Source: a bacterium (GTDB taxonomy: Bacteria; UBA8248). From it: a DNA stretch of 64,000 nt. Shown piece by piece: positions 6,188-43,636 of this stretch (position 1 is the stretch's first letter; every line of letters starts with the position of its first letter). A program made the translations under genes and the position numbers. The notes beneath the pieces are model-generated. The model saw only the letters and a program-made list of their open reading frames with translations. It was not told the DNA's origin and did no database searches. The stretch is from positions 64,001-128,000 of the forward strand of contig CBDBZU010000004.1 in assembly GCA_965213625.1 (NCBI GenBank). Direction: 5' to 3'.

Positions 6188-7235
6188 GTCAGTGCCTGCC
6201 AACAAACGCCGGCACATTCCATACTTATCCGATAGCACCGGGAAAAGAAGCGTTCGGGAGCTTCAGCTTCCCTCTTAGGAGAGCGTCGTTATCGTTTGTC
6301 GGGTAGGGCACTGGCGCGCGCACCTTTAGGCGGAGGGTTTCCAGCCCTGCCCTTTCGGTTCCAGGGTGGGGTCACAGTTCCGCCTTGAGCCACGTTTCCA
6401 GCCGCCCCCCCTAAAATTCCGTACGTCGAGTTTTCCTCGGTACGGCTTCCAGCAACAGGCACCTCCCAGTTTGGAGTGGAGTATTCCGCGGGAACACCGG
6501 GGTTTAAGACCGACCCTGCCATACCCCTCGGCGGGTCCAACGTTTACTCCGCCCTCAGGCTTCACCATGTGCAGAGCGCTTTCCCCCGCCTCTGTGTGCG
6601 GGCTGCCCGCCACGGTGTCGCCACCTGTGCCCAGAGGTCCTCGCTCCGGGTGGGTTGTGTTCTCCCACCCTTCATCGCTTGGCGACCTCGTCCGCCAGTC
6701 TGGAGGTCTCCGTCTCACTTCCCGGCGCCCCGGTTATAAAGACGGTCTTCGACATTCACAGGGTCATCCTGTCATGACCTCCACACCTTCCGGACTTTCA
6801 CTGCGCTACTTTCGAGTATTGCCGCCTTCAATACGCCGGGAGCCCCGGTTCGTGCGCCTCAGTTTCTTCTGCACCGGCACTGGCCATCGGTTAGGAGGGA
6901 GACCCTTGGCAACTCCATCTACCCCGCAAATCAGCTTCACGCGGGAAGTCCTTGTTTCGACGCTTCATCCGTTCACTTTCGTTACGGTCCTACTCGTTGC
7001 TTGCCTGCCGGGCTGATCGCACACGAGCGGCACGGCGGCCCCTCTGTACCCCGAGGCTTTTACGTCCGGGCTTCCAGAGCGCCGGGTCGCCCCGTACGTC
7101 TGCTGGATATGACTACGGCGCCAAACTGAGAATTGCGCCGGCGGGACTTTCACCCGCTAGTACCGCAGTTAGTCTCGCTGCACCCCTCCCGCAGGACTTT
7201 CACCAGCTGCACTGACACCAGTTAGCCTGGCGCAC
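6188..7235 (-). mobile_element. Group II intron B: 5' domain-I fragment (7235-7184 plus 6297-~6188), interrupted by intron A and truncated
   Basis: Minus strand begins GTGCGCCAGGCTAACTGGTGTCAGTGCAGCTGGTGAAAGTCCTGCGGGAGGG, a canonical GUGCG start. No DV/DVI belonging to it is found. Confidence 0.7.
6298..7183 (-). mobile_element. Group II intron A, ORF-less, 886 nt, apparently full-length ribozyme
   Basis: 5' GTGCAGCGAG. DV GAAGCCGTACCGAGGAAAACTCGACGTACGGAATT (about 6415-6449, AGC triad). DVI ends CCCTACCCGAC. EBS1 loop CCCUCC (6894-6899) is complementary to the 5' exon GGAGGG. Confidence 0.88.
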
Positions 7236-7562
7236 ACCCCATCGCTTGGTCGGGTAGGAGGGGGCATTGCTGCGCCCCTCCCCCCACAGACCCGAGCGTG
7301 CGCGATTGACACACTCGGTTCCTCACCTGACAGGTTCGCTCAAGGGGTTGTCACCCTTGCTCCGCAGGTCGAGGCATTCCTCGCCTGTTTGGCTATCCAC
7401 TGCTGTTTCGTGTACGTGTTGGTGGAACTCAGAGTTTCCTCCAGCGTTTCCCATCAGTGGCTCTGTACAGATGACGCCCCGCTTCCCTCCAGTGGGTCCC
7501 GGTGGCCACGGTTCCCCGCCTTCAGCGGTACTATCAGGGCGCTACGACTTCCTGCCCTTCTC

Positions 7563-7867
7563 TAATCGGGACGAGCAAGTCAAGTTCCTCTGCCCTGTTT
7601 TTTCCAGCTCTGTTCCGCCTTTGGTTTTAGACGATACTCCATGGGGGTCTCGCTTCTCTACGTGATCGGCACCCGGTCCGGGGCCGTCAACAGGATGGGA
7701 TCGGAGAACGAGGTGGAACAATCTCGCATACGTCCTCGCACCGTCACCGACGGAGCGGAACGGGGCAGGAAGCGAACTCACCTCGTCCCTCGTCCCCACG
7801 GGAGCATCCTCCGCCAGATCGGAAGCTGCCGTAGTATTCGGATTCTTCTCCTCTTGGATTCCCAAGG
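7563..7867 (-). ncRNA. Putative bridge RNA / seekRNA of the IS110 element (exact ends unknown)
   Basis: Four ordered guide-like segments: 7763-7772 (target left flank), 7722-7729 (target right flank), 7694-7701 (donor left), 7655-7660 (donor right). Strand polarity alternates as in bridge RNAs. Confidence 0.75.
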
Positions 7868-8908
7868 TCAGGCGGCTACGTCATCCACGCCGTCGCGTTT
7901 CCAGCGGAACTCGCTGCCATCCATCCATATGCGGTGCATGATGACGCCGAGCCGGCGGGCAAGCGCAACCTTCGCGCGCGCCTTGCCGCGACGCTTCGCC
8001 ACACCCATCGCCCAGGCTTTCAGCCATGACCACCGCGTCGTGCGCCCGAGCAAGGCGTTGGCGGCTTCGTAGAGCGCCGCGCGCATCATCGCGTCGCCGC
8101 ACTTGGAGATTCTTCCCGTTCGGTCGACCTCTCCGGATTGCCATTTGCGAGGCGCAAGCCCGAAGTGCGCGCCCACCGAGCGCGAACGAGCAAAACGCGA
8201 TGGCACGTCGACGCTCGCCCGGAAGGTGAGCGCCGTCACCGGACCCACGCCGGGGACCGTCATCAGGCGACGGCAGACCGGGTCGACGCGCACCGCCTCC
8301 AGCATCATCCTGTGCAGCCGGACGTATTCCGCCAGCAACGCCGCTCGCGCCCGCAGCATCGGCTTCACCAGGCCCGCCAGCGCCGGGCGCTCCGCGACCA
8401 GTCCAAGCACCCGCGCCTCCAGCCCGCGGCGGGTGACCTTGCCCATCTTCAGCCCGAAGTTGCGCAGCGTGCCCCGGATGTTGGCCTCGGCGTCGCACAA
8501 CTGCTTCAGCATGAACCTGCGGTTGGCGAGGAGCATTCGTTTCTCCTGGCTCGACACCGTCTTCACGTGCACCGGGCGAATCAGGTTCGCGCGAACCAGC
8601 TGGGCGATCCCGCGCGCGTCGTCACGGTCGCTCTTGTTCACCGTCGCAGATAGTATGGCCTTCAACTGCCGCGTCTCGGCGCAAACCACCGGGAGCCCGG
8701 CCTCGGCCAGGCCGTCATGGAGCCACTGCGACAGCGGCCCCGCCTCAAGACAGATGCGCGTCACGCCGAAGTCCAGCCCGGTGAAGAACGCCGCGAGGGC
8801 CGCGGGTTCGCTCGCGACCTTCGCCTCCCGGACGATCCCGCCGTCCACGTCCACCACGCACACGCTCGTCCACTCCAACGACACGTCGAGTCCTGCAAAG
8901 TAGTTCAT
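7868..8908 (-). CDS. IS110-family DEDD recombinase/transposase, intact
   Basis: MNYFAGLDVS, CLEAG, KSDRDDA (DEDD), VPGVGPVTA, FGLAPRKWQSG (catalytic Ser), GRISKCGD. AGGAG RBS. Confidence 0.95.
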   Translation of the reverse strand: MNYFAGLDVSLEWTSVCVVDVDGGIVREAKVASEPAALAAFFTGLDFGVTRICLEAGPLSQWLHDGLAEAGLPVVCAETRQLKAILSATVNKSDRDDARGIAQLVRANLIRPVHVKTVSSQEKRMLLANRRFMLKQLCDAEANIRGTLRNFGLKMGKVTRRGLEARVLGLVAERPALAGLVKPMLRARAALLAEYVRLHRMMLEAVRVDPVCRRLMTVPGVGPVTALTFRASVDVPSRFARSRSVGAHFGLAPRKWQSGEVDRTGRISKCGDAMMRAALYEAANALLGRTTRWSWLKAWAMGVAKRRGKARAKVALARRLGVIMHRIWMDGSEFRWKRDGVDDVAA

Positions 8909-9634
8909 GACTGCTCCTCCTGCGGGCGCGTAGAGACCGGACCATCCCGGCCTCGCCTCGATCATATGACAGAGGAACATCCCCTACACGCGGTAGTTCG
9001 AGGGCCGACCCGATTATCCCATCTCGCATCTCCTTCGGCTTATTGTTTTCACCAGCCGGTTCCGCGGGCGCCTGCCGGGTTCGTGTCCGCCATGGGGCGC
9101 TCCCGCCGCCGTGCAAGCCCGGCGACGGACCGGGGTCTGGATTTTCATGCTGGCCGTCCCCTTTCCAGCGTTCTTGCCCACGGGCAAGAGCAGGATCTCC
9201 CAGGTTCCCTGGCGACCCATCCCCGTAACTTTGCGCCGGTCCACGACCCCGGACGACCCGTTGCGCCTCGCCGATAGCGGCGCTTCCGGTGCTGCCCCCA
9301 CACGATTAACAATGAAGGCGTCGTCGATTCACCGATTTCGAGGCTTACCCCACCGCTTCGTCACCTGCTGTCTACGCTTCACGACGCACGTTGCCGCACG
9401 CCATGCAAGACTCGCTTCCGGCTGGCTGGCTTCGCCTTTGCCGGGCGGGAGTCGAACCCGCTGGGTCGCTACGAGAGGTTTCAGGTCATGGCGTCCTCCT
9501 CTCCAGGGCTTAGCCTGGCGCAATAAACGTTCGGCGACAGGGTGATGGCGCCGGGTTTACTCATTCCGGACTTAAGCAAAAGGTTCTTGTTGAGGGGCTG
9601 GTAACATCATCCGGCATGTGGTAATCATGTCGGC

Positions 9635-43275: not shown

Positions 43276-43636
43276 TGGTGGAGGCGGCGGGAATCGAACC
43301 CGCGTCCGCAAGGCTTCCGTCGTGAGCGTCTACGCGCGTAGCCGGTGGAAAGGGTTTCGCCCGGTCTCAAGCCCACCGGCGGGCCATCCTCCGGGCTAGT
43401 CCGATTAGATTTCGCCTAGCAGGCTCCGGACCGAAACCTGGGTCGGCTAGTCCGCATCATGACGTTCCGCACCTCCCCCGCGGACGAGGCGAGGGGGAAC
43501 GCTCGCTAGCGTTTAAGCAGCGAGAGCCAGCTCGTTGTCGGCTGGTGTGATTTTGCCACATTGATAACGGGGCCAAGTGGCGTCCCCGGCGCGCAGCTCA
43601 GACTTCAAATCCTCCCGTCGAAGCCAGATCGCCCCC
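43276..43636 (-). ncRNA. ssrA: tmRNA, tag peptide probably (A)ADNELALAA
   Basis: 5' GGGGGCG pairs with CGCCTCC-ACCA (G3:U). T-arm GCGGGTTCGATTCCCGC. Tag ORF at 43542-43513 ends GCT GCT TAA. Near smpB. Confidence 0.96.

Follow-up and report, generated by a model that had tools for sequence, protein, structure and literature searches.

The window, a 64,000-nt stretch of contig CBDBZU010000004.1 from a bacterium of the UBA8248 lineage, contains an insertion sequence (IS) that interrupts a group II intron, both lying on the minus strand (Table 1). The IS is an intact IS110-family element of the IS1111 type, as an earlier note on this DNA had proposed, and both its recombinase gene (tnp) and an RNA region downstream of tnp are recognizable, the former by Pfam and NCBIfam matches and the latter by a covariance model, R1. 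The recombinase matches DEDD_Tnp_IS110 (PF01548, 47 bits) and Transposase_20 (PF02371, 79.5 bits) in Pfam, as well as NCBIfam NF033542 at 227.6 bits (cut-off 140), and its C-terminal half aligns with PDB chains of the ISCro4 and IS621 transposases. Its translation also contains GLAPRKWQSG, which fits the GL-P----S(t)G motif described for the C-terminal domain of IS1111 transposases in PMC11187229. No named IS relative was found in a plasmid search, and the best annotated relatives, about 60% identical, are labelled just "IS110 family transposase". Non-coding DNA amounts to 311 nt downstream of tnp, at the right end, versus 113 nt upstream, at the left end.

Table 1. Features of the insertion sequence and the interrupted intron, in positions of the window.
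Feature	Position	Strand	Remarks and basis
Inserted IS	7557–9022	−	1466 bp, one AG core copy counted; junction contigs of runs X5 and X6
tnp, 346 aa, intact open reading frame	7868–8908	−	Pfam, NCBIfam and PDB matches
Core AG, left junction (CT on + strand)	9023–9024	−	AG precedes ATGGGR in every relative
Core AG, right junction	7557–7558	−	...TAGAGA-AG ends every relative
Left subterminal inverted repeat TAATCGGG (tnp sense)	9009–9016	−	6-nt extension ATGGGA before it; direct reading, conserved in relatives
Right subterminal inverted repeat CCCGATTA (tnp sense)	7563–7570	−	4-nt extension GAGA after it; direct reading, conserved in relatives
Conserved structured core of bridge/seek RNA	7639–7801	−	Covariance model R1, 195 bits
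Target guide 1, CUUCCUGCCC	7763–7772	−	Complementary to core G plus right target half-site GGCAGGAAG, tnp-sense strand; 5' side of first internal loop
Target guide 2, AUGCGAG	7723–7729	−	Identical to left target half-site ATGCG plus core AG; 3' side of first internal loop
Donor guide 1, AUCCCAUC	7694–7701	−	Complementary to core G plus left end ATGGGAT
Donor guide 2, UAGAGAAG	7653–7660	−	Identical to right end TAGAGA plus core AG
Left target half-site ATGCG in intron	9025–9029	−	Direct reading; uninterrupted intron copies
Right target half-site GGCAGGAAG	7548–7556	−	3' strand of basal helix of an intron domain of ~185 nt; 3 compensatory pairs
5' part of interrupted group II intron	9023–9523	−	Start inferred at UUGCG; RF02005; 95.8% identical to paralog L001
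3' part of same intron, without maturase ORF	7249–7556	−	Putative DV/DVI at 7249–7323; RF00029 below gathering score

The boundaries of the element can be read from contigs of the public runs X5 and X6, in which position 7556 is joined to 9023, with 1466 nt skipped and 2 letters that fit either side, and a skip of equal size is present in run X1. AG directly before ATGGGR on the left and a right end in ...TAGAGA-AG are likewise shared by each of the 12 full-length relatives and by some 48 further relatives that are more distant. Insertion is site-specific and produces no duplication beyond the short core, as both the skip in the contigs and the family-wide AG indicate, and the subterminal inverted repeats are perfect over 8 bp, within the range of 7–17 bp plus terminal extensions that characterizes the IS1111 group. 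The earlier note had taken TCTC/GAGA as the core. The ends of the relatives, 18 empty intron sites and the junction contigs all give AG (CT on the + strand) instead, and the site length in each of the 18 uninterrupted intron copies matches an AG core, none of them having the 3 extra bases of the former reconstruction. The target and circle junction as first rebuilt were therefore wrong by 3 nt, and the junction sequence that had been proposed for PCR would miss. In tnp sense, the circle junction is ...TAGAGA-AG-ATGGGA... and the target is ATGCG-AG-GGCAGGAAG.

A search of 100 sources with model R1 yielded 94 matches, including matches downstream of tnp in relatives, and with the loci set so that tnp is on the + strand, all but one match fall on the tnp strand. 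In the RNA alignment A2 (74 distinct rows), which was fitted to the model and thereby favours structure, 89.8% of cells are paired versus 36–49% when partners are slid, compensatory changes on both sides occur at 37 of 47 pairs, and the covariation score of 0.327, against 0.04–0.08, was reached by none of 500 shuffles. The architecture is a long outer stem carrying two internal loops, the first of which holds the target guides and the second the donor guides. The donor loop has no stem of its own, and the outer stem closes it at a three-way junction. An RNAalifold consensus of 9 sequences leaves both target guides unpaired between the closing stem and an inner hairpin, and keeping all four guide segments unpaired costs 6.5 kcal/mol (−111.3 versus −117.8). 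The earlier reading, with the four segments placed in two internal loops and target and donor each read on alternating strands, is supported. As a single sequence, the RNA region folds unexceptionally (z = −1.54; 11 of 100 shuffles fold equally well), and the non-coding region has no Rfam match, whether at gathering score or with E as high as 1.

The four segments first singled out on the minus strand, CUUCCUGCCC (7763–7772), AUGCGAGA (7722–7729), AUCCCAUC (7694–7701) and UAGAGA (7655–7660), are all present, and their limits change with the core: since the core is AG, the last A of AUGCGAGA does not read the target, and UAGAGA extends to UAGAGAAG, core included. The two donor guides correspond to the joined ends of the element itself, again with the core, and in one relative (L003) ACCCCA faces that element's own end TGGGGT, a covarying base in donor guide 1. 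Target guide 1 has a C facing the core A. Target guide 2 carries the sequence of the left half-site and core and so would pair with the opposite strand. When the 305-nt non-coding region was subjected to 20000 mononucleotide shuffles, AUGCGAG occurred in 471 and the 10-mer CUUCCUGCCC in 6, with both in none. The guides had been thought to follow the order LTG-RTG-LDG-RDG. In the orientation of the element, they are instead arranged as RT-guide, LT-guide, RD-guide and LD-guide, which is the published order of IS1111 seekRNAs, reversed relative to IS621 (PMC11187229), and not that of IS621 itself (PMC11208160).

Among relatives whose recombinases are 90–97% identical, the non-coding region is near-invariant apart from the two target-guide blocks, and in these near-identical elements the variation of the blocks follows the flanks. 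The blocks match the flanks in the window, in the G013 type (3 of 4 copies), in the G014 type (4 of 6, fully or with one mismatch), in L014 and in L015/L016. Across 60 distinct guide/site combinations, a count that left out the 27 of 91 RNA matches without recognizable conserved ends, guide 2 agrees with the left half-site on average at 4.05 of 6 positions versus 1.60 in non-cognate pairs, from which pairs having a guide or half-site in common were left out. The contiguous run of guide 1 averages 6.6 nt versus 2.3 nt in the non-cognate pairs, and runs of at least 8 nt are found in 36 of the 60 cognate pairs versus 42 of 3352. A relative in run X5, about 98% identical, retains guide 2 and the left flank unchanged, with 6 changes in guide 1 and a different right flank, and seems to have altered just one half-guide along with one half-site. 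The flanks cannot be predicted from the guides in every case, since several other relatives occupy sites that their guides mismatch (L005, L008/L060, L017/L062 on the right side; L070 on the left). A guide-pattern search of metagenome contigs returned no copies with the guides of the window element, and a protein scan there gave relatives of at most 80% identity. For distant relatives with the right half-site GGACTCGAAC, a tRNA T-arm target was considered and rejected, as ARAGORN found no tRNA in 11 loci or in 11 rebuilt sites.

The flanks of the window element belong to a group II intron, which had been correctly recognized. RF02005 (group II intron domain I–IV) is matched at 9237–9454 with 132 bits (gathering score 49), and RF00029 (domain V/VI) scores 32.4 bits, below its gathering score of 40, the same region of the paralog L001 scoring 27.3 bits. 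L001 is uninterrupted and carries a maturase (TIGR04416, 355 bits), whereas in the window copy the extended ORF retains just its first 22 residues, so the occupied copy is an ORF-less derivative. A whole-intron MFE fold proved too unreliable for assigning domains, and an alignment of intron copies (A3) was used for this reason; it contains a helix between columns 22–29 and 201–208 with 3 compensatory pairs. The target supplies the 3' side of the basal helix in a large intron domain, probably DII, as assigned from position and one covarying helix rather than from a curated intron model. Of the former placement at the DII basal stem / J2-3 region, the part supported is the 3' basal strand of a domain that by position would be DII. 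The 16-nt target occurs in the 18 uninterrupted intron sites of the genus exactly in 2 cases, with one mismatch in 13 and with two mismatches in 3.

The analysis establishes the anatomy of the element, a conserved and covarying RNA, guides that change together with the flanks, precise insertion boundaries, and flanks that are intron. The locus is very probably a bridge/seek-RNA-guided IS1111-type element that was directed by its own guides into a 16-nt site within a group II intron. We infer that the RNA is produced and bound by the recombinase, and that the element remains active. By homology to IS621 and ISEc11, a complex of RNA and recombinase would bring the excised circle and the target together. 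In the target loop, guide 1 would pair with the tnp-sense strand (core G plus GGCAGGAAG) and guide 2 with the opposite strand, and the two conserved guides of the donor loop would likewise read the joined ends on two strands. Strand exchange at the AG core would leave AG on both sides with no further duplication, and insertion would in this way be steered into the ATGCG-AG-GGCAGGAAG site of the maturase-less intron copy. We lean towards seeing the intron as simply the place where a matching 16-mer occurs, rather than as a preferred niche.

Points of comparison are offered by IS621, whose bridge RNA is reportedly also the subject of Hiraizumi et al. 2024, and by IS1111 elements with seekRNAs. 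According to Durrant et al. 2024 (PMC11208160), the IS621 bridge RNA shares with the RNA described here a target loop and a donor loop, each reading both strands, a 2-nt core within the pairings, and guides that covary with targets across orthologues. In IS621, however, the RNA lies in the left end with LTG before RTG, whereas here it lies in the right end with the order reversed; the core is CT in IS621 and AG (tnp sense) here; the inverted repeats of the window element are longer; and the IS621 donor loop has its own stem, in place of an outer stem closing it at a three-way junction (PMC11208160). The IS1111 elements with seekRNA (ISEc11, ISPa11, ISKpn4 and ISPst6; Siddiquee et al. 2024, PMC11187229) are alike in having a DEDD transposase of 330–350 aa with GL-P----S(t)G, subterminal inverted repeats with short terminal extensions, a long non-coding region downstream of tnp, and an RNA whose match to the top strand lies 5' to its match to the bottom strand, the two overlapping in the target. 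Unlike those elements, the window element targets the inside of a group II intron.

IS4321/IS5075 and the IS1111-attC group are IS1111 members with a fixed target inside another mobile element. These elements insert into the terminal repeats of transposons or into integron attC sites, whereas the target of the window element lies in an intron; works cited in PMC11208160 report Tn21 terminal repeats and integron attC sites as IS1111 targets. ISPpu9/ISPpu10 and other REP-targeting IS110 elements share with it a repeated, hairpin-capable target sequence, although the window copy occupies the strand of an intron helix and not a REP. A full-text literature search found no IS1111 target inside a group II intron, and the per-element target supplements of PMC11208160 and PMC11187229 might include one. 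Our verdict is a known mechanism with an apparently unreported type of target. Since that mechanism is the one already published for bridge/seek RNAs, we propose no new category; the intron target adds one more case of an IS1111 member landing in another mobile element.

The window element may be a stranded copy that is no longer mobile, with its anatomy intact and its RNA or recombinase not made in the host, and we regard this as possible but doubtful. Such a state would fit the single copy of the IS in its own genome, as well as a scan of 7500–9100 that found no sigma-70-like promoter, nor any intrinsic terminator. The element is also almost without cover in RNA contigs, with most of 7568–8974 uncovered in X15, although this is one metatranscriptome run represented by contigs only and says nothing on expression either way. 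On the other hand, the element has an intact ORF, perfect inverted repeats and two donor guides that fit its ends, and relatives reach 4 copies in G013 and 6 in G014. If the insertion were instead off-target or a half-match, the resemblance of guides and flanks being partial or accidental, the precedents would be the half-match insertion reported for IS621 in 10.64898/2026.08.31.748434 and those relatives, noted above, whose sites fit their guides on one half or not at all (L017/L062, L070, L005 and L008). This is hardly credible for the window copy, in which both halves match, over 7 nt and 10 nt, at the exact guide positions of the family, a combination that none of the 20000 shuffles produced.

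The earlier note had gone further in calling the element specialised on a group II intron family. On such a reading, the intron would offer a landing pad that is multi-copy and selectively neutral, and it might also act as a vehicle, since an IS in the same orientation as the intron could travel inside retrohoming intron RNA. The conservation of the 16-nt target in the intron family across the genus, the co-orientation of IS and intron, and the targeting of mobile elements reported for other IS1111 members would all be in keeping with this. We nevertheless think it unlikely. There is one insertion in one genome, with no second copy there even though the paralog offers an unoccupied site that differs by one base, with A at the first position of the right half-site; all 18 uninterrupted sites found in the genus are empty, and G020, the holder of both exact sites, has no IS match. 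An Rfam scan at gathering score gave an intron flank at none of 16 loci of close relatives. The occupied copy has no maturase, and because the insertion splits a helix strand, its splicing or retrohoming is doubtful. The bolder form of the idea, in which an RNA-guided IS lineage retargeted its bridge RNA onto a conserved group II intron helix as a neutral multi-copy landing pad, perhaps being carried during retrohoming, strikes us as distinctly improbable; if true, it would mean that a DNA transposon hitch-hikes on a retroelement by way of an RNA guide.

Independently of the intron, the relatives form a natural series within one genus, in which elements with 90–97% identical recombinases differ almost solely in two target-guide blocks, and this series documents the speed and modularity of target reprogramming in nature. 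The AG core and the end structure are now defined, with corrected boundaries, for a large subfamily of IS1111 whose range takes in sponge symbionts as well as Alphaproteobacteria from soil. The G014-type relatives, for their part, sit in a small palindromic repeat.

The earlier note had placed the element among IS110/IS1111 insertion sequences, an identity that is borne out by both the transposase and the ends. Beside its Pfam matches, the transposase scores 227.6 bits against NCBIfam NF033542, "IS110 family RNA-guided transposase" (cut-off 140), its C-terminal half aligns with PDB chains of the ISCro4 and IS621 transposases, and its translation holds GLAPRKWQSG, which corresponds to the motif GL-P----S(t)G described for IS1111 transposases in PMC11187229. 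The ends have 8-bp subterminal inverted repeats, with a short left end (113 nt) and a long right end (311 nt), the layout that passages of PMC11208160 and PMC11187229 give for IS1111 elements. The architecture and, by homology, the mechanism are those of the published IS1111 seekRNA/IS110 bridge RNA systems, all of whose testable defining features were found here, and the window element is a new member of these systems. It occurs once in its own 4.15-Mb genome, where other IS110-family genes are at most 36.5% identical.

Features of the element and of its predicted guide RNA region (window positions)
Feature	Position	Strand	Basis
tnp, 346 aa	7868-8908	minus	Pfam DEDD_Tnp_IS110 + Transposase_20
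Insert	7557-9022	minus	relatives' ends, uninterrupted sites, contig joins
Target-side segment CUUCCUGCCC	7772-7763	minus	read directly
Target-side segment AUGCGAGA	7729-7722	minus	read directly
Donor-side segment AUCCCAUC	7701-7694	minus	read directly
Donor-side segment UAGAGA	7660-7655	minus	read directly

Three independent results set the core at AG, not at TCTC (GAGA in the gene sense) as the earlier note had it. The left end reads ...AG/ATGGGR and the right end ...CCCGATTAGAGA-AG/ (slashes mark the boundaries) in 12 of 12 full-length close relatives regardless of the flank, and about 48 more distant relatives have an identical end pattern. The uninterrupted intron paralog in the same genome reads GATGCGAGAGCAGGAAG at the site, whose length is the same in 18 uninterrupted intron copies in the genus (no mismatch to ATGCGAGGGCAGGAAG in 2, one base in 13, two bases in 3); the target rebuilt in the earlier note is 3 nt longer than every uninterrupted site found (n = 18). 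In public sequencing runs, examined as assembled contigs, X5 and X6 connect window position 7556 directly to 9023; 1466 nt are left out, two letters at the join could belong to either side, and contigs of X1, which is probably the source sample, show a skip of equal size. Taken together, the relatives' ends, the empty-site length and the contig joins delimit the insert and give a target of ATGCG-AG-GGCAGGAAG and joined ends of ...TAGAGA-AG-ATGGGA...

All four RNA segments claimed downstream of the transposase gene are present, matching or complementing the flanks and ends as described. Shuffling the 305-nt region 20000 times produced the 7-mer in 471 sequences, the 10-mer in 6 and the two together in none. 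Their order, given before as LTG-RTG-LDG-RDG, becomes RT-guide, LT-guide, RD-guide, LD-guide in the orientation of the element (right and left target, right and left donor), which is the order, reversed relative to that of IS621 (PMC11208160), that PMC11187229 reports for IS1111 seekRNAs. The donor guides are conserved among relatives, and one position covaries with the element end (ACCCCA opposite TGGGGT in the relative L003). Guide 1 (window 7761-7763) shows two pairing registers within the family when compared with L009 and L014: in these two relatives and in L101 the guide carries CU opposite both core bases, and in the window and L003 the core G alone is paired and guide 1 pairing extends 9 nt into the right half-site.

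The earlier note proposed folding the region to see whether the segments lie in loops, and in the minimum-energy fold they fall in two loop regions with weak cross-pairing; keeping all four unpaired by constraint costs 6.5 kcal/mol. Fold energy alone is unremarkable (z = -1.54; 11/100 shuffles fold equally well). A consensus computed with RNAalifold from 9 distinct sequences leaves the two target guides unpaired, in an internal loop with a 14-pair closing stem on one side and an inner hairpin on the other; the donor guides stand on either side of a second hairpin, under a common outer stem. A covariance model made from the alignment of these sequences gave 94 matches in 100 sources searched, all except one on the tnp strand (loci oriented with tnp on +). 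In the alignment of the matches, which has 74 distinct rows, the paired cells make up 89.8% versus 36-49% with slid partners, 37 of 47 pairs show changes on both sides, and the covariation score is 0.327 versus 0.04-0.08 (reached by 0/500 shuffles), counts that rest on an alignment fitted to the model and biased toward structure, a bias that the slid-partner control limits. At locus L132 a second match (1640-1778) lies in tandem behind the first (1426-1581), and L109 1-112 (minus strand) holds a partial RNA copy at a contig start with no tnp adjoining; they could be duplicates or orphans of the guide RNA, for which the abstract on ssr9 of ISPpu9 offers a precedent.

Guide-target covariation, which the earlier note had proposed to check, is seen in close relatives and family-wide. 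Where transposases are 90-97% identical, the non-coding region is near-invariant apart from two blocks that coincide exactly with guides 1 and 2. The window guides fit their own flanks over 10 nt and 7 nt, and the guides of L014 and L015/L016 also fit theirs; guides fit in 3/4 copies of the G013 type, and in the G014 type a full match or a single mismatch is seen in 4 of 6 copies, a fifth copy has a single mismatch per half and the sixth matches in the left half only. No fit was found at L005, L008/L060, L017/L062 (right side) and L070 (left side), which may reflect later guide change or half-match off-target insertion, as reported for IS621 in 10.64898/2026.08.31.748434. The reverse complement of guide 1 lies downstream in 46/74 cognate versus 242/6422 non-cognate cases, and the exact guide-2 8-mer upstream in 13/86 versus 80/7480. 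Recognisable ends in 64 of the 91 RNA matches yield 60 distinct guide/site combinations, in which guide 2 agrees on average at 4.05 of 6 positions (1.60 non-cognate), and the guide 1 run averages 6.6 nt (2.3 non-cognate), reaching at least 8 nt in 36/60 versus 42/3352. A relative in X5 (~98% identical over window 7556-9033) keeps guide 2 unchanged and shares 11 nt of left flank with the window copy. It differs in the right flank and by six substitutions, all inside the RT guide (7760-7771), which points to half-sites changing independently; the relative looks like a natural one-half-site reprogramming.

The reading of the flanks as a group II intron stands, on an RF02005 match of 132 bits at 9454-9237 (minus strand) and on the uninterrupted paralog, which spans the insertion site at 95.8% identity; the DV/DVI match is weak (RF00029, 32.4 bits, below gathering, 7323-7249, minus strand). 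The paralog encodes a TIGR04416 reverse transcriptase/maturase (355 bits), and a single intact maturase of the family is found in the whole genome. In the occupied copy ~1250 nt are missing, the maturase ORF included (window 7344-7379 against paralog L001 1635-2889), and we read it as an ORF-less derivative because 22 ORF residues are left. Aligning 12 intron copies pairs columns 22-29 with 201-208, joining the right half-site to a segment that lies ~175 nt further upstream; two-sided changes in the two divergent copies preserve three of these pairs, and the left half-site extends the same helix. The target domain is branched, ~185 nt long, and follows the closure of domain I; after it come one ~70-nt domain and a stem preceding the maturase ORF. 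Of the proposed DII basal stem, then, the basal helix strand holds, with its three compensatory pairs, and the name DII follows from position, which makes the placement plausible. A different group II intron piece (6977-7159, minus strand; RF02003, 46.5 bits, just under the gathering score of 49) lies ~90 nt beyond the DV/DVI of the first intron in the downstream direction and has a GUGCGCCAGGCUAA-like start, and thus two introns lie in tandem. A third copy of the first intron, 97% identical (L002 ~1455-1868; G000:C4:3427362-3427867), stops 17 nt short of the IS target site, on its upstream side, with unrelated sequence beyond, a junction also seen as a loose end in X1.

The site for which the guides are programmed is a conserved one in this intron family, and the earlier note took the element to be specialised on it. 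The remaining evidence is negative: there is one insertion, in one genome. The sole near-target in its own genome (one mismatch) is empty, as are 18/18 uninterrupted sites in the genus, and a genome with both exact sites (G020) has no match to the IS. Near-full-length copies in 5 of 22 other same-genus genomes searched all have other guides, 0/16 relatives' loci match a group II intron at Rfam gathering scores, and G014-type elements target a small palindromic repeat, a few copies of which are empty. The simplest reading is that of a lineage free to retarget from one repeated sequence to another, one variant of which has landed on an intron. The literature searched holds no report of a group II intron as natural target, although supplements of the founding papers might list one.

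Among soil relatives, L115, L116, L119, L121, L151, L112, L155, L122, L107, L023 and L153 have in common a right half-site, GGACTCGAAC, that looks like a tRNA T-arm; as a candidate target the T-arm was rejected, ARAGORN finding no tRNA in the loci or rebuilt sites. The window also holds a tmRNA gene at 43276-43636 (minus strand; RF00023, 172.6 bits).
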